Origin: an uncultured Lachnospiraceae bacterium
GTDB lineage: Bacteria > Bacillota > Clostridia > Lachnospirales > Lachnospiraceae
Direction: 5' to 3'
Length of the DNA stretch: 64,000 bases
Assembly: GCA_910579085.1 (NCBI GenBank)
Contig: CAJTRU010000001.1
Location: forward strand, 1,421-65,420
Under the pieces are notes generated by a model. That model saw only the letters and a list, made by a program, of their open reading frames with translations, was not told where the DNA came from and made no database searches. Position numbers and translations under genes: made by a program. Shown here one piece after another: positions 6,849 to 64,000 of the stretch. How positions within the stretch are numbered: the stretch's first letter is position 1; every line of letters starts with the position of its first letter.

Positions 6849-7298
6849 TAATTTCCAGTTATACTTTTTTGATGAAGAATTATTTCATGGCAGGGCACAC
6901 CTTCGCTATTATGTAATGTCATTTAGTTAAGTGGGATTGTTTAAAAATTACACATTCTGAATATGCTGGCAAATCCAAAGTGACTTCCATGAAAAAAGCA
7001 CGCTTCCACTGGTCTGGTATGGACTCGCACGCAATGGATGCATAAAGCCCTAAAATACAGGGCTTAAGCACCAGCGGCTTCGTACAGCTTTTTCATGGGA
7101 GCACATTTGGAATTTGCCAGCAATCTACACTTTGGTAATTTATAGAAATATCTTTGTACAAACTCTTAACTAAATGACATTACTCTATGCCAGCCCATGC
7201 ACCAGTGCTCCTTTCATGGAATAATATTCCGCTGGAACACTTAAAACCTGCTGTTTTCTGGCAAAATTCAAAAAAATAAATATTATAACTGGAAATTA
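6849..7298. repeat. foldback (nested inverted-repeat) element, large form, copy 1
   Basis: Perfect 15-bp terminal inverted repeats: TAATTTCCAGTTATA at 6849-6863 and TATAACTGGAAATTA at 7284-7298. The interior is a long imperfect palindrome and contains module C (6913-7183). No ORF of 60 aa or more is present. Confidence 0.8.
6913..7183. repeat. inner palindromic module C, copy 1 (nested inside 6849..7298)
   Basis: Perfect 19-bp inverted termini: GTAATGTCATTTAGTTAAG at 6913-6931 and CTTAACTAAATGACATTAC at 7165-7183. The central segment 7027-7050 is the exact reverse complement of 7672-7695 in copy 2. Confidence 0.8.
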
Positions 7299-7304
7299 TG
7301 TTGT

Positions 7305-7400
7305 GGTACAGATGATTTAGGCGGACGGAAACCTGATAAACTCTTTTTTGTATTGATAAATAACTACTACATTGTGTAATAAGTGACTAGCAGAATAACC
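7305..7400 (+). repeat. repeat module B, copy 1 (carries a conserved 21-mer)
   Basis: The block GATGATTTAGGCGGACGGAAACC...AATAAGTGACTAGCAGAATAA has its 21-mer at 7378-7398. That 21-mer recurs identically at 20379-20399 and reverse-complemented at 22164-22184. Confidence 0.7.
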
Positions 7401-7413
7401 ACCACCACCACCT

Positions 7414-7892
7414 TATTTGCAGTTATCTTATTATCCAGTGTTTTTATTGTAAGTTTATGATGACAGGTTTCATGTGCCAGATGCCAGAAATATTCTGTAC
7501 AGAGAGAGGGACTCGCTTCTGCTATGTTACAATGTTATTTAGTTAAGAGCTGATGGAAAATACTTTATAAATTACCAAAGTGTAGATTGCAGGCAAATTC
7601 CAAATGTGCTTCCATGAACAAGCTGTACGAAGCCGCTGGTGCTTAAGCCCCTATGTTCCTACGGAACATAGGGGCTTTATGCATCCATTGCGTGCGAGTT
7701 CAAGCGGAAGCGTGCTTGTTCATGGAAGGCACTTTAGATTTGACTGCGTACCCCATCATTGTTAAATTCCAGTATCCCCTTAACTAAATAACATTGTAAC
7801 TTAGCGGTTTACAGGAGCGTACCCCTTACGGAATATTCTGGCTCTGGCACAGAAACCGCCGGTCCTTTACAAATACAAGATAACTGCAAATA
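7414..7892. repeat. foldback element, large form, copy 2
   Basis: Perfect 16-bp terminal inverted repeats: TATTTGCAGTTATCTT at 7414-7429 and AAGATAACTGCAAATA at 7877-7892. The core stem 7467-7495 pairs with 7831-7856. Module C is nested at the apex (7526-7800). Confidence 0.85.
7526..7800. repeat. inner palindromic module C, copy 2 (opposite orientation to copy 1)
   Basis: Perfect 22-bp inverted termini: GTTACAATGTTATTTAGTTAAG at 7526-7547 and its complement at 7779-7800. The interior is homologous to 6913-7183 in reverse orientation. Confidence 0.8.
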
Positions 7893-7895
7893 TAC

Positions 7896-7925
7896 AAAAA
7901 GCGCCAGGGAATATGGCGCTTTTTG
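7896..7925 (-). terminator. bidirectional rho-independent terminator after spoVG
   Basis: The stem GCGCCA (7901-7906) pairs with TGGCGC (7914-7919). An A-run and a T-run flank it, and it lies 19 nt downstream of the spoVG stop. Confidence 0.75.
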
Positions 7926-7943
7926 TATACGTTATATTGCTTT

Positions 7944-8240
7944 TTACTGATGCTCTGATTCAGAACTGCTTTCTTCTCCCAATTCAGCAACAGCAAGTGC
8001 ATATTTTTCTAAAATAACTTTCTGGATTATATCCCGTGTCTCTGAATTAATGGGATGCGCTATATCTCTAAATTCGCCATCTCCAGCACGTCTGCTCGGC
8101 ATCGCAATAAATAAGCCTTTATCTCCATCAATGACTTTGATATCATGAACAACAAATTCATCATCAAGAGTCATTGACACTACAGCCTTCATTTTACCTT
8201 CCTTTGTGATTTTCCTCACTCTTACGTCTGTTATCTGCAC
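7944..8240 (-). CDS. spoVG: septation/sporulation regulator SpoVG
   Basis: The product reads [38 protein letters not shown]...FIAMPSRR. The start was reassigned to the GTG at 8240, with AAGGGGG 7 nt upstream. Confidence 0.9.
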
Positions 8241-16551: not shown

Positions 16552-16619
16552 AAGCTTTTACATTTCCAGTTATCTTTTGCTGGTGTAATTTGGAGGACGG
16601 ACGGTTTACAGCAAAAGAT
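16552..16619. repeat. minimal hairpin member of the foldback repeat family
   Basis: Arm ATTTCCAGTTATCTTTTGCTG (16552-16572) pairs with CAGCAAAAGATAACCAGAAAT (16599-16619) at 19 of 21 positions. The loop contains GGAGGACGGACGGTTT, shared with other copies. It lies about 40 nt downstream of the ileS stop. Confidence 0.7.
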
Positions 16620-16657
16620 AACCAGAAATTATCCTGTATACAATTTATTGTATTTGT

Positions 16658-19600
16658 CTATAATTTTTCAACACCAAGTGTTACTTTTTCACCATTTATA
16701 TTCCACTCTTTAGTAAATCCTTCTGCTGCCCCATATACAGTTTCATTAGCAAGGACTTCTGATTTAATTGTATCTTCATTATTCTTTATAACTTCTGTAA
16801 TTTTATCATTATCTTTTACACTTACACGTATATGGTCCATAACCTCAAAGCCCGCATCCTTGCGCATTGTCTGTATTTTGCTTATAACTTCACGTACAAA
16901 ACCTTCCTCAATTAACTCTGGTGTAAGGTTTGTATCAAGCACTACAGTAATTCCACGGTCTGTAGCAGAAATATACCCTTCAATCTGTGCTGCCTCTATT
17001 AAAAGGTCATCCTTTGAAAGTGCTTCTTCACTGCCATTAACAGTAATTACAAGCTGTCCTGTACTATTTATCTCTTCCATTGCTTTCTGCCCGTCAATGC
17101 CTGCAAGTACCTCTTTTACTGTATTAATATCCTTGCCAAACCTGCGGCCAAGAGTCTTAAGCTGTGGCTTAAAACTATATGTTGTAAGAGTGCTGACATC
17201 GTCTTTAAGGATTGCTTCTTTAACATTAAGCTCATCTTTTATTATATCCAGATAAAATTCTGAAAGGTTTGCACCAGCTTTTATAAACATTTTGCTTATT
17301 GGCTGGCGGTTTTTGATATTGGCAGTATTCCTGCATGAACGCCCTATAACAACCGCTTCAAGCACTGTTTCCATATCTTCTTCAAGCTTCTTGTCTATAA
17401 TTTCTTCACAAACTGCTGGGAAATCACAGAGATGTACACTTTCAGGTGCAGTTTTGTCTGTACTGCACACAAGGTTGCGGTAAATCTCTTCTGTCATAAA
17501 AGGAACCATAGGTGCTGCTGCTTTGGAAATTGTTACAAGTGCTGTATAAAGTGTCATATATGCATTAATTTTATCCTGCTCCATTCCCTTTGCCCAGAAA
17601 CGCTCACGGCAGCGCCTTACATACCAGTTGCTCATTTCATCTGTAAATTTCTGCAAAGCCTTAGCTGTTTCTGGTATACGGTAGGCATCCAGGTTTTCAT
17701 CAGCTTCCTTTACTGTACTGTTAAGACGCGAAAGCAGCCATTTATCAATAATTGCAAGTTTGTCGTACTCAAGCTTGTATTTTGTAGCATCAAACCCGTC
17801 TATATTTGCATAAAGCACAAAAAACGCATATGTGTTCCAGAGAGTGCCCATAAATTTACGCTGCCCTTCCTGGACTGCTTTGCCATGAAAACGGTTAGGC
17901 AGCCAAGGTGCACTGTTTACATAGAAATACCAGCGGATTGCATCTGCACCATAAGTTTCAAGAGCCTCAAACGGGTCAATTGCATTTCCTTTTGACTTGC
18001 TCATCTTCTGCCCGTTCTCATCCTGTACATGCCCAAGTACAATAACATTTTCGTAAGGTGCTTTATTAAACAGAAGCGTTGACTCTGCCATAAGTGAGTA
18101 GAACCATCCCCTTGTCTGGTCTACGGCCTCAGAAATAAACTGTGCTGGGAACTGCTGCTCAAATAAATCCTTATTTTCAAATGGGTAATGATGCTGTGCA
18201 AATGGCATTGCCCCCGAATCAAACCAGCAGTCAATAACTTCTGGTACACGTTTCATTACACCGCCACATTCTGGGCACTTAAATACTACTTCATCAATAT
18301 AAGGCCTGTGCAGTTCCCTTTTTGCATCATCAGGACAGCCGCTTCTCTCTGCAAGTTCAGCCCTGCTTCCTACAGCATCCTGTAAACCACAGCCTTCACA
18401 CTCCCATATATTAAGCGGTGTGCCCCAGTAACGGTTACGTGAAATACCCCAGTCCTGTATATTTTCAAGCCAGTTGCCAAAACGCCCTGTACCAATGGAC
18501 TCAGGAATCCAGTTTACTGTATTATTATTCCTTACAAGGTCCTCCTTAACTTCTGTCATCTTTATAAACCATGATTCACGTGCATAGTAGATAAGTGGTG
18601 TATCACATCTCCAGCAGTGAGGGTAATCATGTTCAAACTTAGGAGCTGCAAAAAGCTGCCCGCGCTTGTCAAGGTCTTTAAGCACCTCTGGGTCTGCCTT
18701 CTTGACAAAAAGCCCTGCAAATGGTGTTTCCTGTGTCATTTCACCTTTTTCATCTACAAACTGTACAAATGGAAGGTTGTATTTGCGCCCTACATTGGCA
18801 TCATCTTCACCAAATGCTGGTGCAATATGGACTATTCCTGTACCATCTGTCATTGTAACATAAGAATCGCATGTTACAAAAAATCCTTCTTTATGCTGCT
18901 TATCTGCTAATTCTTTAGCACATCCATATAATGGCTCATACTTTTTATATTCAAGGTCTTTTCCTGTATAAGTTTCAAGTATTTCATATGCCTTTATGCC
19001 ATCTTCTCCAGTAAGGCGTGAAAGTACAGTATCAAGAAGTTCCTGTGCCATATAATATGTGTAACCATCTGCTGCCTTTACCTTACAATAAGTTTCATCA
19101 GGGTTTACACAAAGACCTACATTAGATGGAAGAGTCCACGGTGTAGTAGTCCAAGCAAGGAAATATGCATCTTCTTCTACAACCTTAAAACGTACTATTG
19201 CAGAACGCTCTTTAACCAGCTTATACCCTTGTGCTACTTCCTGTGATGAAAGCGGTGTCCCACAGCGTGGGCAGTAAGGCACAATTTTAAATCCTTTATA
19301 TAAAAGCTTTTTATTCCAGATTTCTTTTAATGCCCACCACTCAGACTCAATAAAGTTATCATCATATGTTACATATGGATTATCCATATCCGCCCAGAAA
19401 CCAACTGTTCCCGAAAAGTCCTCCCACATGCCTTTATATTTCCAGACAGACTCCCTGCACTTTTTAATAAAAGGCTCCATTCCATACTCTTCTATCTGCT
19501 CTTTGCCATTAAGCCCTAAAAGCTTTTCAACTTCAAGCTCCACAGGAAGCCCGTGTGTATCCCATCCTGCTTTACGCGGCACTAAATAGCCTTTCATAGT

Positions 19601-19816
19601 CTTATAACGTGGTATCATATCTTTTATAACACGTGTAAGCACATGGCCTATATGCGGCTTTCCATTGGCAGTAGGCGGCCCGTCATAAAATGTATAGACA
19701 GGACATCCCTCCCTTGCTTTCATTGACTTTTCAAAAATCTGCTGGTTACGCCAGAATTTTCCAATATTTTTCTCGCGTGCTACAAAGTTTAAATCAGTTG
19801 AAACTTTTTCGTACAT
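16658..19816 (-). CDS. ileS: isoleucine--tRNA ligase
   Basis: The product starts MYEKVSTDLNFVAREKNIGKFW and carries HIGH-type (PTANGKPHIGH) and KMSKS motifs. The start was reassigned to the ATG at 19816, which has an AAGGAAG RBS. Confidence 0.95.
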   Translation of the reverse strand: MYEKVSTDLNFVAREKNIGKFWRNQQIFEKSMKAREGCPVYTFYDGPPTANGKPHIGHVLTRVIKDMIPRYKTMKGYLVPRKAGWDTHGLPVELEVEKLLGLNGKEQIEEYGMEPFIKKCRESVWKYKGMWEDFSGTVGFWADMDNPYVTYDDNFIESEWWALKEIWNKKLLYKGFKIVPYCPRCGTPLSSQEVAQGYKLVKERSAIVRFKVVEEDAYFLAWTTTPWTLPSNVGLCVNPDETYCKVKAADGYTYYMAQELLDTVLSRLTGEDGIKAYEILETYTGKDLEYKKYEPLYGCAKELADKQHKEGFFVTCDSYVTMTDGTGIVHIAPAFGEDDANVGRKYNLPFVQFVDEKGEMTQETPFAGLFVKKADPEVLKDLDKRGQLFAAPKFEHDYPHCWRCDTPLIYYARESWFIKMTEVKEDLVRNNNTVNWIPESIGTGRFGNWLENIQDWGISRNRYWGTPLNIWECEGCGLQDAVGSRAELAERSGCPDDAKRELHRPYIDEVVFKCPECGGVMKRVPEVIDCWFDSGAMPFAQHHYPFENKDLFEQQFPAQFISEAVDQTRGWFYSLMAESTLLFNKAPYENVIVLGHVQDENGQKMSKSKGNAIDPFEALETYGADAIRWYFYVNSAPWLPNRFHGKAVQEGQRKFMGTLWNTYAFFVLYANIDGFDATKYKLEYDKLAIIDKWLLSRLNSTVKEADENLDAYRIPETAKALQKFTDEMSNWYVRRCRERFWAKGMEQDKINAYMTLYTALVTISKAAAPMVPFMTEEIYRNLVCSTDKTAPESVHLCDFPAVCEEIIDKKLEEDMETVLEAVVIGRSCRNTANIKNRQPISKMFIKAGANLSEFYLDIIKDELNVKEAILKDDVSTLTTYSFKPQLKTLGRRFGKDINTVKEVLAGIDGQKAMEEINSTGQLVITVNGSEEALSKDDLLIEAAQIEGYISATDRGITVVLDTNLTPELIEEGFVREVISKIQTMRKDAGFEVMDHIRVSVKDNDKITEVIKNNEDTIKSEVLANETVYGAAEGFTKEWNINGEKVTLGVEKL

Positions 19817-19882
19817 AAATACAACTTCCTTTCTAAATAATATAATAATTAGATATAGAATAGGACGAAGTTTCCTATAAAA

Positions 19883-20215
19883 TAAAAAAGCCTCCACCCT
19901 GCATAAACAGGATGAAAGCCGGAACATTCATAACCACCTATTCTGCTGTACGTGGACATTATAATAATATCCAGATACATGACCTGTATAACGGCAGGAA
20001 CCGGCGGAGTGTACTAGCAGCAGCAAATACCATCTATGGCATACCTGCATATGCTTTCCACAAGCAACTCAGGAGTGATATCCTTTCTTTGTTCTAAAGC
20101 AAAAATGCTTATGCACCTGGTTCACACTATCCCAGGCTCACTGTGGCTTCCCAGAAGAAAGGCCGCCTGCATAAAATATGCAGTTACGTCTCCATCACAG
20201 TCTTTAAATATTTAT
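19883..20215 (-). promoter_or_regulatory. probable T-box leader (Ile) with terminator/antiterminator
   Basis: These elements are read on the minus strand. A Stem-I distal motif CCUGGGAUAGUGUGAACCAGG is present, and a candidate specifier AUC followed by A sits in GGAUAUCACU. The T-box-like AAUAGGUGGUUAUGAAUG contains a UGGU bulge. A 12-bp terminator stem plus a U-run follows (19883-19921). The 3' half of the T-box sequence deviates from consensus. Confidence 0.65.
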
Positions 20216-20299
20216 ATAGACATATTCTAGTATGGTTTAAATGCTTTGTCAAGGTAAATTTCATAATTTAGTACTGGTTAAATATTATAATTATAAATT

Positions 20300-20402
20300 A
20301 TGGAGTGGGGGCAGGTGATTTAGACGCACGAAAGTAACTGGATATCCTTTTACATACCCCGTTATTGTTCCACTGTATAATAAGTGACTAGCAGAATAAC
20401 CT
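20300..20402 (+). repeat. repeat module B, copy 2
   Basis: The block GGTGATTTAGACGCACGAAAG...CACTGTATAATAAGTGACTAGCAGAATAACC has the identical 21-mer at 20379-20399. Confidence 0.7.
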
Positions 20403-20413
20403 TCTCCTCATAA

Positions 20414-20674
20414 TTTATAGTTACCTGATTATATGTGTTGTAAATTTGTGATGACAAGTTTCATGTGCCAGATGCCAGCAATATTTTGTACAGGGGTACT
20501 TTAAGCACGTATGTTCCAGAGGGAACATAGTTCCATCCGGGATATACGTGCTTTATGTGCCGCTGCGTGGCTTATCGTAGCGTTTTGCAGGGGCGTACCC
20601 TTGTATGGAATATTCTGGCTCTGGCACAGAAACCGTCCATCCACCAATCCACAAAAACACCAGATAACTATAAA
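20414..20674. repeat. foldback element, medium form
   Basis: The 10-bp termini are TTTATAGTTA (20414-20423) and TAACTATAAA (20665-20674). The core stem 20458-20485 pairs with 20608-20633. Two side-by-side hairpins occupy the apex. The element ends 10 nt from the GH13 stop codon. Confidence 0.8.
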
Positions 20675-20683
20675 ATACCCATA

Positions 20684-21994
20684 CTACTTCTCCATAAGCC
20701 AGAATGAAGCTGAATATGGTGGAAGTTCACTTCCACCCCCGAAGTCATGAGGCTTTCCTGTAATTAAATCTTCTGCCATGCCACACCCAGCATCAAAATG
20801 TGCTACATATGGCTGGTTAGAAGCATTAATTGCTACAAGAACCCTTTCCCCCTCACAAGCACGTTCAAATATGCACTGGTGGTTTGTAAGGACAATATTA
20901 CGGTAATTGCCATAATTTAAAGCCTTGCTGCCTTTTTTTGCCTTGGCAAGTTTAGAAATCCACTCTGCCAGCTCCCCAAATACAGGTTCTTCAAAACATG
21001 CACGTAATGCAGGGTCCCCTTCACTCTTAGCAGCTTTAGCACCCCATTCACTTCCATAATATACACATGGAATTCCAGGCATACCAAAATTAAGGGCATA
21101 AATTAATGGAAGATGTTTTTCATCTGCCAGGTTACTTGCAATACGGCTTACATCATGGTTGTCCACAAAACTTAACAAATGCATACCCTTATAAAGAGTC
21201 CATTCCTCTGGACCATACTGCCTTGCAAGTGAATGGCATATTTCAAACATATTCATGCTATTAAAACTTGAATACAGCCCTTTGTAACACTCATAATTAG
21301 TAACAGAATGGCACATCTCATTATTTGCCCACTGTTTATAATCGCCATGCAGGGTTTCACCTACAATAAAAAATTCCTCTTTAAGTGAGTCTGTAAACTG
21401 CCTCAGCCTTTTTAAGAAATCCTTGTCAAGACAGTATGCCACGTCAAGGCGCAGGCCATCAATATCAAACTCACTAACCCAGCTACGGACCGCATCAAAA
21501 ATATGTTGTACAACTTCTTCATTACGGAGGTTCAGTTTTACAAGGTCATAATTGCCTTCCCATCCCTCATACCACAAGCCATCATTATAATTTGAATTGC
21601 CGCCAAAATTAATATGGAACCAGTCACGGTATTTTGAGCCTTCCCTGTTAGCAAGTACATCCTGGAACGCCCAGAACCCGCGTCCAACATGGTTAAAGAC
21701 ACCATCAAGCACAACCTTTATGCCTTCCTTGTGAAGTTCCTGGCAAACTTTTGCAAAATCATCATTATTTCCAAGCCTGCAGTCAATCTTTTTAAAATCC
21801 CTTGTGTTATAGCCATGTGTATCAGACTCAAACACAGGTGAAAAATATATAGCATCAGCCCCCAGTTTCACAATATGTGGAATCCAGTCAATAACCTTTA
21901 AAATACGAGGCTTTTCCTCTCCATCATTTTCAAATGGTGCTCCACAAAATCCCAATGGGTAAATCTGATAAAATACACTTTCGTATGCCCACAT
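20684..21994 (-). CDS. GH13 alpha-amylase-family glycoside hydrolase (intracellular, no signal peptide seen)
   Basis: The 436-aa ORF has an AGGAGGG RBS. GH13 conserved regions are present (DGVFNHVG, GLRLDVAY, FIVGE, FVDNHD). Confidence 0.88.
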   Translation of the reverse strand: MWAYESVFYQIYPLGFCGAPFENDGEEKPRILKVIDWIPHIVKLGADAIYFSPVFESDTHGYNTRDFKKIDCRLGNNDDFAKVCQELHKEGIKVVLDGVFNHVGRGFWAFQDVLANREGSKYRDWFHINFGGNSNYNDGLWYEGWEGNYDLVKLNLRNEEVVQHIFDAVRSWVSEFDIDGLRLDVAYCLDKDFLKRLRQFTDSLKEEFFIVGETLHGDYKQWANNEMCHSVTNYECYKGLYSSFNSMNMFEICHSLARQYGPEEWTLYKGMHLLSFVDNHDVSRIASNLADEKHLPLIYALNFGMPGIPCVYYGSEWGAKAAKSEGDPALRACFEEPVFGELAEWISKLAKAKKGSKALNYGNYRNIVLTNHQCIFERACEGERVLVAINASNQPYVAHFDAGCGMAEDLITGKPHDFGGGSELPPYSASFWLMEK

Positions 21995-22087
21995 AATATT
22001 GCCCTCCTTTTTTGTAAATTATCTGTATCTGTCTTAGTATACCGCAAATTCCAGTATACATCAATGCATTATTATACATCGCATACA

Positions 22088-22322
22088 TCCGTTTCATAAA
22101 AATATGGAATAATTTACAATAAAACACAAGATAACTAGATAACTGTAAACAGGGTGCTGGGAATTATTCTGCTAGTCACTTATTAAACAGTGTAATATCC
22201 AATACTTTCATATTATAATATATTAATACTAAAATAATATTACTGTACTTCCATATGTCTGAACCCCCTCCCCACACCAGAAACCCTGCATCCGTCCTCC
22301 AATAAAAGATAACTGGAAATTA
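22088..22322 (-). repeat. composite repeat with module B copy 3 (reverse orientation) and terminal blocks
   Basis: It carries CCGTTTCATAAA at 22088-22100, the reverse-complemented 21-mer at 22164-22184, and AAGATAACTGGAAATTATC near 22303-22322. It lies upstream of the GH13 gene. Confidence 0.7.
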
Positions 22323-22454
22323 TCTTAATAAAACATTTTTTTATTTAAAAGAATAATTTCATCCATCATGCAAATAATATAGATGTTACACGACAACATT
22401 GTGGCACACCCACAAAATATTATTATTTGTGCAAAGCACAGAAAAGAGGTTATT

Positions 22455-46095: not shown

Positions 46096-46196
46096 TTTAA
46101 TCTCTCCTTTTCAGTTATTCTTTCATTTTAATGCTATCTGCAGCAAATAAATATTTATATTATAACATACTGGAATATCATGTGCACCATTTTTTT

Positions 46197-47718
46197 AATT
46201 ATAACTTCAATTAGTCTTTTGGACATAATGCAAAAAAACTGTTATAATCATATGGGGAAATATTCTGATATAAAGGCAGGGAATAGCATTATGGTACAGA
46301 TTAGTGAAAAAGATAAGGAAAAAGTACTTGGAGCACTACATTCAGGTAAAATAGATACTGCGGAACTGGCAATGCCAGCCCTTGCTGATTCTATTATGCT
46401 TACCATGAAACATCATGGTTTTCTTGAACCATTTAATGAGGCATTTAAGGATAAACGCAGTGATAACCTCCATATACCTTCAAATATACTGCTGGCACTT
46501 GCCATTACTGCAAAACTGAAACAAAAAACAAGCCTTACAGATATCCCTTTTGCAGTTTCAGATGCAGGGCTGCTTGCAGAACTTGGCTGGAATACATGGG
46601 ATTATGGGCGTAATGTAACTGAAGGGCTCTTTTCTGAAAGTGTAATGCGTAAACTTGTAAAAAAATACAACAGTGAAGAACTGGTTTCTTTTTATAACCA
46701 TTATGTGCAGGATTATGCATTAGAAAACCTTGGCGTACAGCCATGCATACATATACTGGACTGTACTAAAATCCCTGTTAACCTTAGTAATACAAATTAT
46801 GAAAATTCCTCTGTTGTAACCATAGACGGTGAAACCATGCGTGGATACAAGCTTGGTGTACTGCGTGGCGTCATGGATGATTCAGGCGTAGCAGAAGAAA
46901 TTGTCTTTGGTACTTTAAAAACCCATGATATGGAATTATGCAGGGAAATGTTAAAAAACACTCCATGTTTCCATGAAAATGACATCTTAATAAATGACAG
47001 GGGGTTCCTGTCACGTGAAATGGCAAATTACCTTAAAACAGAACGTAAAGTTGACACATATATCCCTGCAAGGGAAAACATGGACATATTTAAAGACGCA
47101 GTATCACTGGCTGTTTCCAGTGGTAAATGGCAGAAACACCCAGATAAAAAAAGAAAAGACCAGGAAATACAGCTTGTAAAGTCCCTTGGACTGTTATGGG
47201 CAAGTGACACCCCTGAAAAAGATGTCCCTGTCAATGCTTGTGTTGTGCATGACAAAAAAGCAGACAAGTTCTTTGTTTTTATGACCACTGATACCACAAA
47301 AACTGCGCGCCAGATTATCCAGATATATGAACTGCGCCCAGAAATAGAAGAAGACTTCCGCCAGATGAAAGATTTCTGGAAATTAAGCAGTTTTAAAAGT
47401 ACAAAATACAATTATATTACTTTCCATATTATAATGACCCTGGCCGGCTACCTTTTCTTCCAGATATACAAAAACCTTGAAGAAGGGCAGGCTTACACAG
47501 GCAAATCCTTGCCTGTCGTTGCCAAAAACTACAAAGAAACCAAACCAAAAGAGGTAGTTGTATACGTGGGACAGTATTTTGGTATTTTCCCATTCCTTGA
47601 ATTTTTAAAAATCTATGCAGAATGCACATTAGAAGTAAGACAGCTTCTTGACCCGGTTCTTGCTAAAGTATAGCATGTTTTTTATAATATTTTCAAAAGA
47701 CTAATTGAAGTTGTAAAT
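46197..47718 (+). mobile_element. IS4-family insertion sequence, apparently intact
   Basis: Perfect 19-bp terminal inverted repeats: AACTTCAATTAGTCTTTTG at 46203-46221 and CAAAAGACTAATTGAAGTT at 47694-47712. They bracket a single DDE transposase gene. The outer boundaries are uncertain by about 6 nt, and no clear target duplication was resolved. Confidence 0.8.
46291..47673 (+). CDS. IS4-family DDE transposase
   Basis: Candidate DDE residues lie in HILDCTK, LINDRGF and the Y(2)R(3)E(6)K signature IYELRPEIEEDFRQMK. The start is uncertain (46252 or 46291); the track ORF start at 46180 lies outside the left IR. Confidence 0.85.
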   Translation: MVQISEKDKEKVLGALHSGKIDTAELAMPALADSIMLTMKHHGFLEPFNEAFKDKRSDNLHIPSNILLALAITAKLKQKTSLTDIPFAVSDAGLLAELGWNTWDYGRNVTEGLFSESVMRKLVKKYNSEELVSFYNHYVQDYALENLGVQPCIHILDCTKIPVNLSNTNYENSSVVTIDGETMRGYKLGVLRGVMDDSGVAEEIVFGTLKTHDMELCREMLKNTPCFHENDILINDRGFLSREMANYLKTERKVDTYIPARENMDIFKDAVSLAVSSGKWQKHPDKKRKDQEIQLVKSLGLLWASDTPEKDVPVNACVVHDKKADKFFVFMTTDTTKTARQIIQIYELRPEIEEDFRQMKDFWKLSSFKSTKYNYITFHIIMTLAGYLFFQIYKNLEEGQAYTGKSLPVVAKNYKETKPKEVVVYVGQYFGIFPFLEFLKIYAECTLEVRQLLDPVLAKV

Positions 47719-47812
47719 TTGTGGTGACAGGTTTTTTTATAAGGAATATTATAACCCTGTCACAAAAACTATTCATCAATCTACAAAAACACATTATAAC
47801 TGCAAATCCCTG
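47719..47812. repeat. right half of a short foldback-family copy, adjacent to the IS4 right end
   Basis: The sequence AAATTTGTGGTGACAGG...CCTGTCAC...ACAAAAACACATTATAACTGCAAAT parallels 20440-20460 and 20650-20674. The terminal block overlaps the last codons and the stop of the AraC gene. Confidence 0.65.
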
Positions 47813-49524: not shown

Positions 49525-49755
49525 CACGTCCGTTTCATAAATTCCTGTACAATAAACTGTATGCAGGATAATTTGCAGTTATCTTATACCATATGTTTTA
49601 TTATAGCTTTATGTGCCGCTGCGTGGCTTACCGTAGCGGAATGCGTACAAAAGCCATGCCTCCGGCATGCTTTTTTTACTGGATATCCTGGCTCTGGCAC
49701 TGGAAACCGTCCGTCCACTAACAAAAGATAACTGGAAATTTATGAAACGGACGTG
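49525..49755. repeat. foldback element, 231 bp, with perfect 19-bp termini
   Basis: CACGTCCGTTTCATAAATT at 49525-49543 pairs with AATTTATGAAACGGACGTG at 49737-49755. An inner inverted pair is 49567-49585 with 49725-49740. The interior shares CTTTATGTGCCGCTGCGTGGCTTACCGTAGCG and the right core arm with the 20.5-kb copy. Confidence 0.85.
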
Positions 49756-49830
49756 AATATAAGGAGCTGCCACACTAAGAATGAAAACTTTCTTAATGTT
49801 ACAGCTCCTTATACATTTTTTAACACATTT

Positions 49831-51314: not shown

Positions 51315-51398
51315 CACACCCGTTTCATAAACTTTTATACATAAAATTTGCAAATATAAGATAATTTCCAAAATACAAGAATTTATGAAACAGACGTG
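51315..51398. repeat. minimal foldback-family copy
   Basis: CACACCCGTTTCATAAA at 51315-51331 pairs with ATTTATGAAACAGACGTG at 51381-51398 (14 of 17 in the aligned core). The interior AATTTGCAAATATAAGATAATTTCC is related to the terminal block motif. Confidence 0.65.
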
Positions 51399-51536
51399 AT
51401 TCTTTTGCAAGAACACAAAGTTTCTGGCGAAATTCACATACAAAACCAAAAAGCCAATCCACTTTCCATTTTATAAGAATGCATAACAAGGCAACAAGAA
51501 AAAATTCCAACCAGCAATCCTAACCATACATCTAAA

Positions 51537-51710
51537 TTATACCTTCTGTAGTTTACTCTCCTCAATCTCCCCATGAAATGCCCTGCCCTTATTATTGTAA
51601 TAATCCATTCGTTCCTGCTGGGTCATATCTTTTGTGAGATAATAATTATATTCCCGCAGCTTATGGATATCATCAATCGTAAAATCAAGACTGAGAACTG
51701 GTTTCTCCAT
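51537..51710 (-). CDS. small hypothetical protein (57 aa) overlapping the PIN gene stop
   Basis: This ORF is not in the track (under 60 aa). It reads MEKPVLSLDFTIDDIHKLREYNYYLTKDMTQQERMDYYNNKGRAFHGEIEESKLQKV. Its ATG at 51708-51710 lies 2-5 nt upstream of the PIN ORF stop (TGATTATG context). Confidence 0.45.
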   Translation of the reverse strand: MEKPVLSLDFTIDDIHKLREYNYYLTKDMTQQERMDYYNNKGRAFHGEIEESKLQKV

Positions 51711-51712
51711 AA

Positions 51713-52188
51713 TCATCCCTCACTTTCTAACAATACTGTTGGACTAAGGATATCTATATTCTTATAACCCTCTAAGTTTGTTACCGCCCTTATACCATGA
51801 ATGGTTTTAATATTTACAATGTGTTTAAAATTCCACGAAATAATGCAATCACAATTATTCACAACTGCTGCTCCTATATGCTGGCAGTCATCATAACTCT
51901 TCGGTGTCAGAATCCCTAAGTCAATCATTTTCTGTGCAACACCCAGCGCTTCAACAGTTATATCCAAAATTGTATACGAAATCTGTGCCATGTATTCCTT
52001 CAACTGGCTTCTTTTAGGTTCTGGACATGCAGATACTTCCTCCAATGTAACAGTAGACAGGTAACATCATACATTCCTTCACGGAACAATTCCCATAATT
52101 GTAAAGTATCTGCCATCTTTTCAGGAACATCCTCTTGCATTAAATGACTAATAACAGACGTGTCCAAATAAACTTTTAATTTCCGCAT
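51713..52188 (-). pseudogene. PIN-domain (VapC-like) nuclease gene interrupted by a 1-nt frameshift
   Basis: Two overlapping ORFs are involved: MRKLKVYLDTSVISHL...EGMYDV and, in another frame, YLSTVTLEEVSACPEPKR...DDCQHIGAAVVNNCDCIISWNFKHIVN. They join into one PIN protein if one base is restored near 52062-52064. Confidence 0.75.
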
Positions 52189-52237: not shown

Positions 52238-52532
52238 TTTCCAAATTCTTTTTTGCCATGTAGGAAAGGAAAAAACATCAACCTTTTTACTACAATCAAA
52301 TTTTGTAGTTTTCATATCAATTATTTTCTTTCTACTTATATCAGGGCTTATGGAAATATTGTTTGTGCCCAATTATGTACCATCTTTCAAAAACCTATAT
52401 AAATTTATATTTGGGTATATCAGAATGTCAAAGCCCTGACATCCAGTATTCATGGGCTTTTAAGGAGTTTTATAAAGATATGGGAAATCTATGAAACCAT
52501 CATACAGATTTATTACAAATACATGATAAAAG

Positions 52533-52662
52533 GTTTCCATGCAAGATGCCAGAATTATTCTGGCTCTGGCACAGAAACCATCCGTTTTACAACAACACAA
52601 GATAATTTGCAATTATCCTAATACTTGCATATTGGGAACACAGAAATTTATGAAACAGTTGT
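52533..52662. repeat. foldback-family copy with a minimal core hairpin plus terminal blocks
   Basis: Core arms 52533-52555 and 52557-52578 pair with almost no loop. They are followed by AAGATAATTTGCAATTATCC and AAATTTATGAAACAGTTGTG. The last block supplies the final codons and the stop of the GPH transporter gene. Confidence 0.75.
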
Positions 52663-54021
52663 GTTTTCCCTGATTAAAGCATTTGCACGCTCTACTTTAA
52701 GCCTTGAAAGGAATATTGTAATTATAAAGTTTATTATAAGTGGTATCCATAAATACATAAAATACAACATGTTAATACATGATGATGCCTGCACCGCAGC
52801 ATTTGGAATATAACCGCTTGCATCAAGCAGCCATCCTGAAAGTGCTGTTCCAATGCCACCTCCTATTTTTACACCAAGGGAAGTACAGGAATACATTGTC
52901 CCGTCAACACGTTTGCCTTTTGTTAAAAATGTATATTCTGAACATTCTGCAATTAATGCATTTAAGTCACCCTGGAGCGGGCTCATGCCAAGTGACGCAA
53001 TTCCTGAGAACAGCAGCATAAGTGGTACGTTTCCCATATAACCTGCCACAATTACAAGCCCTCTTGCCACTGTAGCAAGTATATATCCTGAAAGGTTTAA
53101 CTTATACATCCCCTTAAACCTCTTAACCAGGAAAGGTGTAAGCAGAAGCCCTCCAATAAGCGGTATATTAATTGCCCATGCAAAAACCCCTAAAAGCGAT
53201 TTATCACCAAGTATATAAGTCATAAAGAATATGCCCATATTAAGCGTTGCTGTAAATATCTGCATAAGAATATACATTACACAGATAATAATATAATATT
53301 TATTGGATATAAGCATTTTGGCAGCTGTTTTAAGCCCGTATTTCTCTTCTTGTATATCTTCATTTACAGAATTTCCACTTTCCAGTTCTTCTTCTGGAAG
53401 TTCCTTAACAGATAATACAGATATTGTGTTTACAACTAGTCCAATAACTGCATATATTATAGCTACTGCCTTCCAGCCTCCAGCGCCTCCTCCTAGCAAA
53501 TCTACTGCACCAACTGTAATTGTCTGGATTAACAGGCTTGTACCAAAGGCAAACATAAAACGTACTGAACCCATCTGCACACGTTCGCTGTCATTCTTGG
53601 TAATTAAGGCAGTAAGCGCTGAATATGCAATATTATTTGCAGTATAAAAAACTGCATTTAATAGTGTATATGCAATAAAGAACCATGCATACTGTGCAAA
53701 ACTGCTAATACCCGCTGGTATCATAAAAAGCATTACAATCATTGCTGAACATCCAATATATGCCCATAACATCCAGGGCCTTGCCTTGCCCATTTTGCTT
53801 TTGGTTTTGTCAATCATTGAGCCAAAGAAAATATCTGTAACCCCGTCAAATAGTTTTGATACCATCATTAATGTTCCAACTATGCCCGAACTCATGCCTA
53901 TTGTATCTGTCAGGTAAATCATTAAGAATGATGATAAAAATGCATACACCACATTTCCCGCAATATCTCCCGAACCATACCCAACTTTATTATACCATTT
54001 TAAATATTTCTTTTCCCCCAT
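52648..54021 (-). CDS. glycoside-pentoside-hexuronide (GPH):cation symporter, MFS superfamily
   Basis: The 457-aa product contains YGSGDIAGNVVYAFLSSFLMIYLTD and DGVTDIFFGSMIDKTKSKMGKARPWML, typical of the MelB/LacS family. It lies downstream of lacZ. Confidence 0.88.
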   Translation of the reverse strand: MGEKKYLKWYNKVGYGSGDIAGNVVYAFLSSFLMIYLTDTIGMSSGIVGTLMMVSKLFDGVTDIFFGSMIDKTKSKMGKARPWMLWAYIGCSAMIVMLFMIPAGISSFAQYAWFFIAYTLLNAVFYTANNIAYSALTALITKNDSERVQMGSVRFMFAFGTSLLIQTITVGAVDLLGGGAGGWKAVAIIYAVIGLVVNTISVLSVKELPEEELESGNSVNEDIQEEKYGLKTAAKMLISNKYYIIICVMYILMQIFTATLNMGIFFMTYILGDKSLLGVFAWAINIPLIGGLLLTPFLVKRFKGMYKLNLSGYILATVARGLVIVAGYMGNVPLMLLFSGIASLGMSPLQGDLNALIAECSEYTFLTKGKRVDGTMYSCTSLGVKIGGGIGTALSGWLLDASGYIPNAAVQASSCINMLYFMYLWIPLIINFIITIFLSRLKVERANALIRENTTVS

Positions 54022-61803: not shown

Positions 61804-61824
61804 GTATAATCTCCTTCACTATTA

Positions 61825-62355
61825 TTAGTCCTCTTTAAACTCCACTTCCCCAATATATGGGAGATTACGGTATTTCTGCGCATAATCAAGCCCATAACCA
61901 GCCACAAATTTATCAGGTATAACAAAACCTGTATATTCAGCTTCAATATCTGCTTTCCTTCTGTCAGGCTTATCTAATAATGTACATAATTTAACACTTG
62001 CAGGGTTTCTTGCAAGCAGCATCTTCTTTGTAAGGTTTAATGTTGAGCCTGTATCAATAATATCCTCAATAATAAGGCAATGCTTGCCGTCCACTGGCTC
62101 ATCAAGGTCTTTTTTTACTTCCAGCCTTCCAGAACTTTCTGTCCCGCTGCCATAACTTGAAACTGCCATAAAATCCATTGTTACTGGAACTGTAATCCTC
62201 TTGGCAAGTTCACAGCAAAAGAAAACACTGCCTTTTAATACACATATAAGGTGTATTTCCTTTCCTTCATAATCTTTATTAATCTGTGCTGCCATTTCTG
62301 ATATTTTATCTGCTATCTGCTTTTCTGTAATCATCTCATGTATAACTGTATCCAT
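61825..62355 (-). CDS. hpt: hypoxanthine phosphoribosyltransferase
   Basis: The start was reassigned to MDTVIHEMITEKQI, with an AAGGGGAG RBS. The PRPP loop is LIIEDIIDTGSTL. The gene sits in the conserved tilS-hpt-ftsH order. Confidence 0.92.
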   Translation of the reverse strand: MDTVIHEMITEKQIADKISEMAAQINKDYEGKEIHLICVLKGSVFFCCELAKRITVPVTMDFMAVSSYGSGTESSGRLEVKKDLDEPVDGKHCLIIEDIIDTGSTLNLTKKMLLARNPASVKLCTLLDKPDRRKADIEAEYTGFVIPDKFVAGYGLDYAQKYRNLPYIGEVEFKED

Positions 62356-62359
62356 CTTA

Positions 62360-63790
62360 TTAATTCTCCCCTTCTGTGCATAAAGTTGCATGTAAAACTT
62401 CCCTTGTCCCATCTGTTACATAATAATATGCGCTACACCTTCCAATAGAAGGTATCCAAAGGATATGGCTTCCTTCTGCCAGTACCCATATCCTGCCACG
62501 CTCATTTGCTGGTATTTTGCTGTCAATAAATATACGGCTGAGTTTTTTCTTAGAACCATCTGTACGCAGCCAGATATAATCACCATCTTTTGGATATCTG
62601 AACTGTGGCATAAATTTTATTTTATCATAGTCAAAGCATTTAGTACAGTAATTTTTTTCTATAATATGGGAAATATCATTCCTGTCCATCCTTTCAAATA
62701 AAATAATATGCCTTTCCCCATTAATATATTCAAGTTCTGTCCTGCCTGGTACACAAATATCTATAATGCTATTATCATTCCCAGCCTGGGCTGGTGTTTC
62801 ATGCCCTGCTTTCATAATCCATATTTTATTATAGTCCCTGCCTGCCTGCATGTCATATGGCAGGCAGACCCTTTTCCCTGTATCCTTATGGACAAGGGCT
62901 GATACCATACTTATATGTTTTGAAGTTATATCCTTACACCTTCCTGCCACATAGCCAGCCATACGGAGGAATATTTCCCTTTGCAAGACAATATCCTCTT
63001 TTCCAATTATACCCACATCAACCATACAAATACCATTATCTTCTTTAACAATCTCTTTATACAGCTTTTCTGCTTCCCTGTCAATATATGTATATATATC
63101 CCTTAACTGTCCTGCCGTGCCTGAAAGCCTCTCTATAATGGCAGGCTGGATATTTTCCTCTATATATGGGATTATTCTGTTACGTATTATATTTCTTGAA
63201 TATTTATTATCTGAATTAGTACAATCCATGCAATACCCCACATTTTCTGCAAGAAGGGCCTTCTCAATTTCACACCGCCTGGTGCCAAGAAGCGGCCTTA
63301 TAATATTGCCATTCTCCGGCCTCATGCCACCAAGCCCCTTAATCCCGCTTCCCCTGAAAAGCTGGAATAAGACCGTTTCTGCCTGGTCATCCTTATGGTG
63401 TGCTACTGCAATTTTATCAAACCCCAGGCTTTCCCTTACATTCTCAAAACACTCATACCTGTAACTGCGCCCGGCTTCCTCCTCTGTAATCTTTAAATCC
63501 CTTGCAAGTGCAGGAATATCCTTATAAAAAACCTTACACTCATAACCAAGGCCCTGGACAAAATTCTTTGTATACTCCTCATCACGCAAAGCCTCTTCCC
63601 CCCTTATGCCATGATTGACATGCACGGCACAAAGTGAAAGGTTATACTCCTTTGCAAGCCCTGCCAGAACCATAAACAAAAAAACAGAGTCAGCCCCTCC
63701 AGAAACACCGGCAACAATTCTGTCACCATAGTCCACAAGACCATGTTCCATAATAAAATCCTTAACTTTTAAATAAACTGTACTTTTCAT
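62360..63790 (-). CDS. tilS: tRNA(Ile)-lysidine synthetase
   Basis: The start was reassigned to MKSTVYLKV, with an AGGAGG RBS. The PP-loop is VAGVSGGADSV. The C-terminal domain ends 5 nt before the hpt start. Confidence 0.9.
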   Translation of the reverse strand: MKSTVYLKVKDFIMEHGLVDYGDRIVAGVSGGADSVFLFMVLAGLAKEYNLSLCAVHVNHGIRGEEALRDEEYTKNFVQGLGYECKVFYKDIPALARDLKITEEEAGRSYRYECFENVRESLGFDKIAVAHHKDDQAETVLFQLFRGSGIKGLGGMRPENGNIIRPLLGTRRCEIEKALLAENVGYCMDCTNSDNKYSRNIIRNRIIPYIEENIQPAIIERLSGTAGQLRDIYTYIDREAEKLYKEIVKEDNGICMVDVGIIGKEDIVLQREIFLRMAGYVAGRCKDITSKHISMVSALVHKDTGKRVCLPYDMQAGRDYNKIWIMKAGHETPAQAGNDNSIIDICVPGRTELEYINGERHIILFERMDRNDISHIIEKNYCTKCFDYDKIKFMPQFRYPKDGDYIWLRTDGSKKKLSRIFIDSKIPANERGRIWVLAEGSHILWIPSIGRCSAYYYVTDGTREVLHATLCTEGEN

Positions 63791-63854
63791 AAAAAATCCT
63801 CCTGGATAAATTGCTGGATAACGGACGCAGTTTCCAATATACATGAACAAATTT

Positions 63855-64000
63855 TTCCCTCCAGGGGCACGCTCCCGCTACGTTAGCCCACGCAACAGTG
63901 CATAATATCCCTATGTTACAAAATAAACTGCCGTTTCTTTTGTAACATTTAAAACGGGATATAAGCACTGGCGGTGCTAAAGTGTCCCCTGTCACGAAAA
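63855..64000 (-). repeat. partial foldback-family copy (reverse orientation) running off the window end
   Basis: CGCTACGTTAGCCCACGCAACAGTGCATAA is the reverse-complement homologue of TTATGTGCCGCTGCGTGGCTTA(T/C)CGTAGCG at 20553-20582 and 49609-49638. GCTAAAGTGTCCCCTG matches the complement of CAGGGGTACTTTAAGC at 20491-20506. Confidence 0.65.

Follow-up and report, generated by a model that had tools for sequence, protein, structure and literature searches.

Miniature inverted-repeat transposable elements (MITEs) derived from DDE insertion sequences include, for example, those of the IS4/IS10 type with 9-bp target duplications and the MIC231/bcr-type repeats of the Bacillus cereus group. Among the other palindromic repeats of bacterial genomes, the Correia elements (NEMIS) of Neisseria are about 100–155 bp long, duplicate TA and form a simple hairpin. 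REP units measure 20–40 nt, carry a conserved GTAG and are associated with a flanked RAYT gene, and the pneumococcal BOX elements (boxA-B-C) are not known to have terminal inverted repeats (TIRs) or a target-site duplication (TSD). The omega-RNA of PATEs, the bridge RNA and RNA-OUT (a simple ~70-nt hairpin) are under a selection that works via the propagation of the element carrying them.

The previously undescribed repeat family reported here, found in a 64,000-nt stretch of DNA from an uncultured Lachnospiraceae bacterium (the window), is probably an unusually ornate form of MITE. Like DDE-derived MITEs, its elements are under 1 kb and apparently non-coding, possess TIRs, show 9-bp duplications at some of the copies with both outer TIRs, and occur in many intergenic copies with presence/absence polymorphism and a transposase presumably acting in trans. 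Unlike them, the element is unusually long and palindromic throughout, most copies have no outer TIR, and there are two multi-helix modules, paralogs of each other, that are strand-specific and show a GNRA tetraloop and compensatory covariation. With Correia/NEMIS and the ERIC/RUP-type repeats it shares palindromic intergenic copies, full-length as well as internally deleted, which would form long hairpins if transcribed, whereas it is set apart from Correia by a unit of ~700 bp, by 9-bp duplications and by a branched fold whose loops are conserved. The mosaic of palindromic units in alternating orientation, the hairpin-forming doublets and the strictly intergenic location are reminiscent of REP/BIME/REPIN-RAYT and BOX; in contrast to REP, neither GTAG nor a RAYT gene was seen here, and the modules are ten times larger. 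A putative structured RNA lying near, and reading toward, the element end recalls the IS200/IS605 PATEs with omega-RNA, the IS110 bridge RNA and IS10 RNA-OUT. A TIR together with a 9-bp TSD, as seen in complete copies, does not agree with IS200/IS605 or IS110, and no TnpA, TnpB or IS110 gene was found in the sequence examined.

Copies of the family in the window

An earlier note, made from the letters of this DNA only, had described three recurring sequence blocks, and all of them recur far above chance. The block AAGATAACTGSAAAT has 13 matches in the window at ≤2 mismatches, compared to 0.67 expected; CACGTCCGTTTCATAAAT has 6 at ≤3 mismatches (at 22084, 49525, 49738, 51315, 51381 and 52646) against 0.04 expected; and TTCTGGCTCTGGCACAGAAAC occurs exactly three times (7836, 20613 and 52558; 0 expected), with a diverged version of the right arm at 49676–49705. 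Every interval listed in that note was recovered, shifted by a few bases at most from the positions given. Overall, the window contains about a dozen copies, whether full, partial or degenerate, all of them intergenic, with copy ends overlapping, as described, only the stop codons of an AraC-type gene (47794) and an MFS gene (52648). The former estimate was ~2.4 kb, or 3–4% of the window; the union of family sequence comes to ~2.6 kb (4%), the additions including 38809–38850. We consider it likely that these are full, partial and degenerate copies, together with decay products, of one non-autonomous MITE-like family of mobile elements.

The leftmost copy (6849–7300, minus strand) is an A-type module recognized by the A-type HMM at 7300–7199 (70 bits) and 6908–6878, with terminal hairpin motifs at 6851–6865 and 7282–7296 and an expanded apex at 6915–7181. 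Along with the A-type module cut by the window end (63815–64000, minus strand; 124 bits with the A HMM vs 79 bits with the B HMM, model positions 89–268), it represents the sister subfamily, A. The divergent A and B modules are separated by a spacer ("ext", 7301–7412, or 7299–7413 as a repeat copy, plus strand), which is repeated at 20279–20409 and, inverted, at 22111–22197, is conserved upstream of most copies at other loci, and harbors a conserved box, nnTAAT-A-AGTGACTAGCAGAATAAC, at about 7372–7399. The B-type module that follows (7413–7892, plus strand; B HMM at 7413–7513 with 63 bits and at 7799–7891 with 67 bits) has basal stem arms at 7467–7495 and 7831–7856, terminal motifs at 7415–7429 and 7877–7891, and an expanded apex at 7531–7795, inside which a weak B HMM match was present at 7633–7727. 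The apices at 6915–7181 and 7531–7795 are 78% identical in inverted orientation. What had been taken at 7.5 kb for a further 275-bp module is, like its counterpart at 6915–7181, an expanded variant, distantly homologous to the normal apex, rather than foreign DNA.

The canonical full B module (20410–20680, plus strand) consists of the 5′ motif, the basal stem (20458–20485/20608–20633), a multi-helix apex and a 3′ tail with the motif. It scores 222 bits with the B HMM on the plus strand vs 63 bits on the minus strand, its fold has −124.6 kcal/mol (z = −11.7), and the stop codon of an alpha-amylase gene lies 4 nt from its end. The preceding segment (20279–20409, plus strand), left over from the A 5′ motif and the ext spacer, is covered by 8–30 related copies in alignments.

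The remaining copies are reduced to a varying extent. At 16562–16636 (minus strand) there is a solo 3′ tail (16562–16607, positions 244–289 of the B HMM, 24 bits) with a terminal hairpin motif (16615–16636, by motif matches), and the site differs from its ortholog in L037. A rearranged remnant without assigned strand (22084–22325) combines an outer TIR (22084–22101), the inverted right part of ext with the B 5′ motif (22111–22197), and an A-type tail with its terminal motif (22274–22325). The fragment at 38809–38850 (plus strand) is a solo tail-like piece with 74% identity to 52584–52625, and its assignment is weak. A degenerate B copy without apex (47710–47808, plus strand), identified by alignment to the repeat family and by the B HMM at 47740–47807, adjoins the right end of an IS4-like element and is the one that overlaps the AraC-type gene. 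The copy at 49525–49755 (plus strand) is a shell with both outer TIRs as perfect 18-mers at 49525 and 49738, enclosing the left terminal motif (49562–49585) and a B module reduced to its 3′ two-thirds (49602–49740, B HMM 85 bits); no target duplication is present around it. The minimal shell at 51315–51398 (plus strand, 84 bp) retains only a motif-like center between two outer TIRs and is flanked by the 9-bp repeat ATTATTTTG/ATTCTTTTG, which agrees at 8 of 9 positions (one mismatch, 1-nt offset). Finally, an apex-less B copy recognized by the B HMM (52507–52663, plus strand) has arms at 52533–52555/52557–52578, a tail with motif reaching 52620, and a right outer TIR at 52646–52663 that covers the MFS gene's stop codon; it is unchanged in strains L132 and L133.

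The family had not been recognized in the earlier note, and no match to it was found in Rfam, phage records, plasmids or viral contigs; with the Rfam 15 covariance models, two representative copies (20230–20720 and 6800–7950) returned only noise at E up to 10. The sole region of the window at the Rfam gathering score was a T-box (38525–38736). No ORFs were noticed inside the elements in an informal look.

Fold of the modules and covariation

The module core of ~225 nt adopts a strand-specific multi-helix fold: each module contains a GNRA tetraloop, a junction of several helices, a variable hairpin at the apex and a basal stem of its own, formed by self-complementary arms. The consensus folds with −93.5 kcal/mol on the plus strand vs −64.2 on the minus strand, and the strand running outward from the spacer pairs far better than its opposite; for the A module, this asymmetry is weak. 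In the alignment, 97.5% of 2128 pair cells are paired. Double (compensatory) changes were seen in 23 of 75 pairs, compared to 13.6 in shuffles (0 of 500 attained this number) and a maximum of 8 in slid controls. Many of these changes are common to subfamilies, so that independent events are fewer than cell counts suggest. G·U pairs (112) outnumber A·C mismatches (15). The GNRA tetraloop is found in 102 of 105 copies (GGAA 66, GCAA 16, GGGA 8, GAAA 7, GAGA 5), and its closing pairs covary. The pairing of the modules is maintained by compensatory mutations, and covariation above controls, strand-specific G·U pairing and an RNA-type loop, all generic marks of a structured RNA, also lend support to the structured RNA that the earlier note had offered as one alternative.

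Architecture of complete elements and target duplications

Complete elements are large imperfect palindromes of about 0.65–0.8 kb (complete units measured 573–778 bp). The outer arm starts with the TIR CACGTCCGTTTCATAAAT, an 18-mer whose complement stands at the other end (a second TIR type exists, found in L098), and is followed by the terminal hairpin motif (G)GATAA-N7-TTATC(C). From left to right, the order is TIR arm, hairpin motif, A (minus sense), the spacer of ~115 nt, B (plus sense), and the mirror-image motif and arm. The two modules, A and B, face outward, are paralogs of each other and measure 225–500 nt, and the A(−)-ext-B(+) order was found in ~18 of 29 full copies.

Exact 9-bp direct repeats surround the elements in L033 (CATTTTTGT on both sides), L009 (GGACATTAA), L050 (GCACCAGGT) and L098, where the repeat AAATTATTT lies inside a 13-mer repeat around the second TIR type; three TIR pairs had no duplication, and the cases of L012 and L050 are complicated by a longer duplicated segment of TIR plus flank. 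The existence of complete copies with TIRs and 9-bp TSDs supports the MITE/foldback-like character proposed previously. Such elements would be moved by a DDE-type transposase supplied in trans through staggered cutting. Neither an autonomous element nor a transposase gene with the same termini, for which a search had been suggested, was detected in the window or among 131 fetched loci. The IS4-like element (46199–47716) has ends that differ from the outer TIR and share no match with it, in agreement with the earlier observation.

However, only ~55 outer TIRs of type 1 were counted vs 307 terminal hairpin motifs, and no target duplication was found directly at the hairpin motifs or at the inner boundaries; movement by TIR and TSD is, therefore, not demonstrable for most copies, and the hairpin-bounded unit may move by another route. 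Such a route is the core of a rather unlikely explanation, in which an HUH (Y1) transposase mobilizes REP/REPIN/BIME-like or IS200/IS605-type "PATE" units, A and B bounded by hairpins, in the form of single-stranded DNA, the fold then being a DNA hairpin or, if a TnpB/IscB-type nuclease is involved, an omega-RNA scaffold. It would account for the GATAA-N7-TTATC hairpins that end most copies without target duplication there, for the strand-specific folding with G·T tolerated on one strand, for the mosaic, modular, BIME-like copies, and for the solo hairpin footprints. Complete copies with TIRs and 9-bp duplications, in contrast, are not products of Y1 transposition, and the invariant G..RA pattern of the tetraloop is typical of RNA. 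Although IS200 had been reported in the window, no IS200/Y1 transposase gene was detected in the ~47 window ORFs scanned, and neither a Y1 nor a TnpB gene was seen in these or in the recurring ORFs of the 131 loci. Likewise, there was no conserved target motif beside the left end (flanks inspected by eye), and the Rfam HEARO and IS605-orfB models had no match at E up to 10. As to REP/REPIN-RAYT in particular, the units are 225–500 nt long, with no GTAG-type head and no Y1_Tnp match in the scanned window ORFs.

Distribution and decay at orthologous sites

Searches in related genomes, a check proposed earlier, showed the family to be dispersed genome-wide in a narrow group of mouse-gut Lachnospiraceae. 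An exact 21-mer is common to 61 loci in 4 Lachnospiraceae MAGs and an independent 20-mer to 60 metagenome loci; since the loci of the genome scan were retrieved by an exact match to the right arm, the apparent conservation of this arm is inflated. In the ~0.87 Mb of fetched DNA, non-redundant HMM matches numbered 146 of B-type and 98 of A-type, i.e., ~244 module copies.

The comparison of filled and empty sites, likewise suggested before, revealed polymorphism both between strains and between species. The segment 20262–20683 is absent in strain L067, with flanks 99% identical and a solo motif in its place, and in the sister species L037 only the 3′ part of A and the 3′ part of B remain at this site. 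At 22.1–22.3 kb, L067 retains an A 5′ part missing from the window, and in L037 the element is absent except for a motif-like footprint of 17 nt. A comparable internal deletion was seen in the L012 copy at another locus. Because orthologous sites carry differently deleted versions, the partial and empty-apex forms are interpreted as palindrome-centered deletions of a unit of ~0.7 kb, and most window copies are best read as deletion derivatives, not nested insertions. As the orthologous sites show, the long palindrome decays after insertion by deletions centered on or between its inverted parts, leaving apex-less copies, solo arms and tails, shells of 74–100 bp and solo hairpin-motif footprints; such decay gives the copies their nested, modular look.

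Insertion of transposons into one another, as envisaged in the earlier note, need not be invoked, since the apex variants are homologs of each other, the "inserted" 275-bp apex and the normal one included. Repeated insertion of independent foldback transposons into each other's apex or central hairpin is improbable. The shells of 74–100 bp without inner modules, whose hairpin-motif-like center is a possible target, and the excess of inner modules over outer TIRs would fit it, and the palindromic AATATT flanking the apex could mask a target duplication. Nevertheless, the orthologous sites of three genomes are different deletions of one ancestral composite with no stepwise insertion, the A-ext-B order is fixed at many loci, and the inner boundaries show no target duplication.

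It is highly improbable that the copies are sites of site-specific recombination or inversion (invertons, dif-like) bound by a tyrosine or serine recombinase. The terminal motif does resemble a recombinase core (inverted arms of 5–7 bp and a 7-nt spacer, the two ends being inverted to each other), and relative to the right motif of the window, the solo motif of L067 has the opposite orientation. However, no recombinase gene recurs near the copies, no inverted isoforms occur among 10 strain contigs, and a conserved asymmetric fold of 225 nt with a GNRA loop would be left unexplained.

Level of selection and putative function

Single copies decay and have no orientation bias to genes, so that the target of selection is the lineage that propagates rather than the individual locus. 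Singleton substitutions were about equally frequent in paired (0.36 per column) and unpaired (0.45) columns, and 31 of 46 broke a pair. In tandem gene contexts, the two orientations were nearly balanced (15 vs 12), and between species, the orthologous right arm has 87.6% identity, compared to 92–96% for the syntenic blocks including or adjoining it.

It is distinctly unlikely that the modules are instead host-serving structured ncRNA genes or cis-elements (terminators, insulators, mRNA stabilizers) selected at each locus. The covariation, GNRA tetraloop and G·U asymmetry are consistent with such a role, as are a T-run after the basal stem in one subfamily, a terminator-like hairpin within the 49.6 kb copy and the position of copy ends next to stop codons of convergent genes. 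Yet the absence of orientation bias relative to neighboring genes, singletons breaking pairs as often as expected without constraint, the truncated, deleted and polymorphic state of the copies, and an orthologous copy less conserved than its flanks all point the other way.

The MITE-like element probably carries a transposon-related RNA. Each module would be transcribed outward from the spacer, where promoter predictions are weak (an nnTAAT box with no clear −35). Since copies accumulate pair-breaking mutations and deletions, we infer that the RNA would benefit not the host but the element or the insertion sequence from which it derives, possibly as an antisense regulator or a transposase cofactor. 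A tentative possibility, drawn by analogy with omega-RNA, bridge RNA and RNA-OUT, is that A and B form a new class of ornate 225–500 nt RNA located at both transposon ends, reading outward, and acting with or on the transposase as a guide, cofactor or trans-acting antisense regulator. If true, the hundreds of non-autonomous copies would constitute an RNA pool controlling or directing transposition.

Architecture and genomic setting of the repeat element

The three sequence blocks singled out in the earlier note are present where it had placed them and occur well beyond chance frequency. Within the window, AAGATAACTGSAAAT has 13 matches at ≤2 mismatches against 0.67 expected, the outer block CACGTCCGTTTCATAAAT has 6 at ≤3 mismatches against 0.04 expected, and TTCTGGCTCTGGCACAGAAAC, which forms the right arm of the core stem, has 3 exact matches against 0 expected, with a diverged fourth copy at 49.68 kb. 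Self-BLAST of the window connects the regions at 6.9-7.9, 16.5, 20.3-20.7, 22.1-22.3, 49.5-49.8, 52.5-52.6 and 63.8-64.0 kb. Alignment of 29 full copies with their flanks showed a single underlying unit, not many unrelated blocks. In the canonical module, B (20410-20680, plus strand), the hairpin motif ATAATTTACAGTTATC at the 5′ end is followed by a leader (about 35 nt), a long basal stem in which GGTTTC..GTGCCAGATGCCAG.AATATTCC pairs with GGAATATTCTGGCTCTGGCACAGAAACC, a branched apex, the 3′ tail CCGTCCGTCC..ACACAAACAC and a mirror-image motif GATAACTGTAAATTATC. About 18 of the 29 copies have a conserved stretch of ~400 bp ahead of B, made up of a 115-nt spacer and an oppositely oriented sister module A, which has the same architecture but a basal stem differing on both arms (GTTTCCAGTGTTCCATCTAATATTATTCC / GGAATAATTTAGTGGAACACTGGAAAC). 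Because the stems differ, each module pairs with itself and not with the other; a single giant hairpin of A and B was ruled out, each basal stem being self-complementary. In the most complete copies, the whole A(−)-spacer-B(+) composite is enclosed by outer arms starting with the terminal inverted repeat (TIR) CACGTCCGTTTCATAAAT, and a second TIR type, CA(G/A)GACAAACGCATGAATAAATTG, was found in L098, one of the related loci fetched for comparison. What had been taken for a further 275-bp module proved to be an expanded apex variant and not foreign DNA; the stretches 6915-7181 and 7531-7795 give low but consistent scores with the apex part of the B model (positions 95-224) and hold recognisable counterparts of its conserved strings.

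The window comes from an ordinary part of a Firmicute chromosome with low GC (37%), with Pfam-identified genes that include SpoVG, IleRS, alpha-amylase, a GH2 glycosidase and TilS; judging from ORF position and length, EF-Tu, EF-G and ribosomal proteins S7 and S12 are likely encoded as well. As had been claimed, every repeat copy lies between genes, two of them overlapping stop codons. Several other structured sequences were noted in the window. Ordinary bidirectional terminator-like hairpins at 7891-7929 (spoVG 3′ end) and 49758-49813 (SNF-symporter 3′ end) adjoin repeat copies and do not belong to the family. A near-perfect 48-nt palindrome at 39508-39555, AACTGTGCATATACTGTATATATTAATATATACAGTATATACACAGTT, just upstream of an ABC-transporter ATPase ORF (39574-40476) and downstream of the start of a divergently oriented DUF6442 gene, looks like an operator unrelated to the family. 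The direct-repeat families D1, D2 and D4 (spacings 240, 573 and 441 nt) fall within a 674-aa gene (23243-25267, minus strand); since identical copies of this gene in other MAGs bear LRR_5 domains, they are protein repeats outside the family. A T-box leader at 38525-38736 (minus strand; 93.7 bits, at the Rfam gathering score) precedes a 664-aa ORF (36376-38370), with a solo tail-like repeat fragment just upstream of it (38809-38850). The region upstream of ileS (16658-19927, minus strand), at 19928-20252, is a long leader conserved with L037, a sister-species contig, and has a strong minus-strand promoter-like TTGACA-17-TAGAAT (20252 to 20224); this leader is probably a T-box below the Rfam threshold.

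Decay at orthologous sites

The 14.5-22.9 kb part of the window is syntenic with L037 at 91-96% identity, and several MAG contigs of the same species also match the window. In the amylase/ileS spacer (20.3-20.7 kb), the window carries the A 5′ motif, the spacer and a full B module, while L037 has lost the centre and retains the 3′ arms of A and B together with part of an expanded apex; in the strain contig L067, with 99% identical flanks, the element is absent and about 40 nt with a solo inverted hairpin motif are found. The right end of the element sits at the same place against the amylase stop codon in the window and L037. At 22.1-22.3 kb, the window has the A tail only, L037 a 17-nt motif-like footprint, and L067 the A 5′ part. 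Such differing states at shared sites indicate that the element is older than the species split and was eroded differently in each lineage.

Erosion would have proceeded mainly via deletions taking out the palindrome centre or one arm. Deletions of this kind would account for the partial forms: the copy at 52.5 kb lacks its apex, the one at 49.6 kb keeps the 3′ two-thirds, solo tails stand at 16.56, 22.28 and 38.8 kb, and shells of 74-100 bp are found at 51315-51398 and in L104 and L050. The rival explanation, true nested insertion of elements into one another, which the earlier note had named as one possibility, is not required, the orthologous sites differing by deletion. In two further strains with 99.3-99.8% identity, all copies at 49.5-52.6 kb are unchanged, which points to slow turnover within the species.

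Fold of the B module and the level of selection

The 225-nt core of B has a consensus structure of nine helices, with standard pairs in 97.5% of 2128 pair cells. Changes on both sides were found in 23 of 75 pairs, compared with 13.6 ± 1.7 in shuffles (0 of 500 gave as many) and no more than 8 with partners slid by 1-3 columns. The fold is strand-specific, the consensus energy being −93.5 kcal/mol on the plus strand versus −64.2 on its complement; G·U pairs (112) far outnumber A·C mismatches (15), and 27 of 27 sequences share one invariant U·G pair. In the junction, a two-pair hairpin is capped by four bases that fit GNRA in 102 of 105 copies; five versions occur (GGAA 66, GCAA 16, GGGA 8, GAAA 7 and GAGA 5), and the closing pairs covary (GC/GC, GU/AC, AC/GU). 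A tetraloop that varies only at its N and R positions is a hallmark of RNA, and we take this as the strongest single argument that RNA, not DNA, is the selected molecule; the rival reading as recombinase sites leaves the fold and its GNRA loop unexplained.

The sense strands of A and B both run outward from the spacer, where a conserved nnTAAT box, one base ahead of AGTGACTAGCAGAATAAC, could be a −10 element, a weak candidate for which consensus promoter scans were uninformative. An outward promoter, TTGTCA-18-TATAAT, in the left arm of the 20.4 kb copy is unconserved in other copies and was taken as chance. Long-range pairing of GACGGACGG in the spacer with CCGTCCGTC in the tail was also considered and dropped, covariation being absent by eye.

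A conserved strand-specific fold might also be expected of an RNA family serving the host, another rival explanation, and here the comparison of individual copies is informative. Within one genome, core identity among copies is 76-97.5%, with none identical. Singleton substitutions are about equally frequent in paired and unpaired columns (0.36 versus 0.45 per column), and 31 of 46 break the pair. Gene contexts were divergent in 25 cases, convergent in 5, co-oriented tandem in 15 and anti-oriented tandem in 12; a leader or terminator role was therefore rejected, as tandem contexts show no orientation bias and the apparent bias reflects enrichment in divergent intergenic regions. No 5′-truncation bias was found among the copies. 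Moreover, identity between species is 87.6% in the orthologous right arm, less than the 92-96% in the surrounding syntenic blocks. Taken together, these observations indicate that the structure is kept in propagating lineages and not locus by locus, as would be expected if the element is selfish and its RNA (or structure) aids its own spread.

Target duplications and the search for a partner transposase

Several copies retaining both outer TIRs have 9-bp direct repeats on either side: CATTTTTGT in L033 (exact), GGACATTAA in L009 (1-nt offset), AAATTATTT in L098 (within a 13-nt repeat) and ATTATTTTG / ATTCTTTTG at 51315-51398 of the window (1 mismatch), with 7 of 9 flanking positions matching in an older copy, L104. 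In L050 (flanking repeat GCACCAGGT) and L012, the adjacent TIR is duplicated together with the flank as a unit, so neither is a clean case, and three TIR pairs, including that at 49525-49755, show no duplication. As the probability that 9 bases at matched positions agree exactly by chance is about 4e-6, the duplications are real, and such sequence signatures would imply staggered-cut (DDE-type) transposition. The rival here is single-stranded DNA (HUH) mobilisation of hairpin-bounded units. Only about 55 type-1 outer TIRs stand against 307 terminal hairpin motifs, and no target duplication was found directly at these motifs; arrival by the duplicating route is thus not demonstrated for most copies. 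In three loci, a right outer TIR is followed 10 nt on by the left outer TIR of the next element (L012 6650-6700, L106 1643-1690, L128 2751-2800). These back-to-back ends and the duplications of TIR plus flank suggest insertion beside existing ends or local duplication. Retrotransposition-style 5′ truncation was ruled out, since the 97 unanchored matches include 23 5′-only and 26 3′-only ones and model coverage is flat.

No transposase with matching ends was found in the window or among the ORFs of 131 loci. Clustering of all ORFs in these loci gave recurring families of ABC ATPases, response regulators, histidine kinases, MCPs and signal peptidase, and ORFs beside unpaired outer TIRs encode DUF4474, GH43, GH5 and similar. 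The window's IS4-family element (46199-47716), with a 497-aa DDE transposase (46180-47673) and 48-nt imperfect terminal inverted repeats (81% complementary), has ends different from those of the repeat family. Its transposase matched only itself in tblastn, and the fetched DNA contains just one further trace of the element, at the end of L131; a degenerate B copy adjoins its right end. The loose resemblance of its first 16 nt, TTATAACTTCAATTAG, to the terminal hairpin motif TTATAACTGGAAATTAT (~13-14 of 17 by eye) was too weak to use. Two small ORFs lie between two repeat copies at 51524-52176 of the window (minus strand) and 5846-6498 of strain contig L132, where they encode 158 and 57 aa; they have no Pfam match on record and no NCBIfam match. 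The longer one is reduced to 110 aa in the window, suggesting a frameshift or a different start, and the pair may be what had been taken for IS200.

Distribution, relationships and significance of the family

In a scan of one representative genome per species, an exact 21-mer was found at 61 loci, all in four Lachnospiraceae MAGs (~43 in the mouse-gut MGBC164593 and ~15 in MGBC118028). An independent 20-mer from the module apex occurred in 60 metagenome contigs, mostly from two or three samples, with 0 matches in viral contigs; BLAST of the spacer plus B gave no match in plasmid and phage collections. In the ~0.87 Mb of DNA that was fetched, profile HMMs detected non-redundant copies of both types, 146 of B and 98 of A. 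Rfam returned nothing relevant, either at the gathering threshold over the whole window or at E up to 10 on two representative copies, and a full-text literature search did not find a description of the family. Several MAG contigs, such as L008, L017, L031 and other MGBC118028 loci, end within or right at an element copy, and the family appears to fragment short-read assemblies of these genomes.

Overall, we consider the repeats to be probably a MITE-like, fully palindromic, non-autonomous family with two outward-facing, ornate RNA-like modules and palindrome-centred deletion decay. It resembles MITEs in its TIRs, in the 9-bp target duplications around some copies with both outer TIRs and in a putative dependence on a transposase acting in trans, but differs from described bacterial MITEs in the size and conservation of its branched GNRA-containing fold and in the paired divergent arrangement. 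Its mosaic, hairpin-rich look recalls BIME, BOX and Correia elements, and the defining tests of REP/RAYT and of every Rfam family gave negative results. That the modules form a new class of RNA, encoded by a transposon and acting as regulator or cofactor, is possible but rather unlikely.

If this reading holds, a single undescribed repeat family, which should be masked or annotated in mouse-gut Lachnospiraceae assemblies, makes up ~4% of this segment and probably a comparable fraction of the genome. The family is also a clear natural example of long-palindrome decay, as orthologous sites display a series of deletions. For a MITE, a branched fold that is conserved and contains a GNRA tetraloop is unusual, and it points to a candidate transposon-serving RNA. 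Transposon-encoded RNAs, such as omega-RNA and bridge RNA, have recently proven mechanistically and technologically important, so a possible new member of this kind, available in many natural variants, would merit testing.
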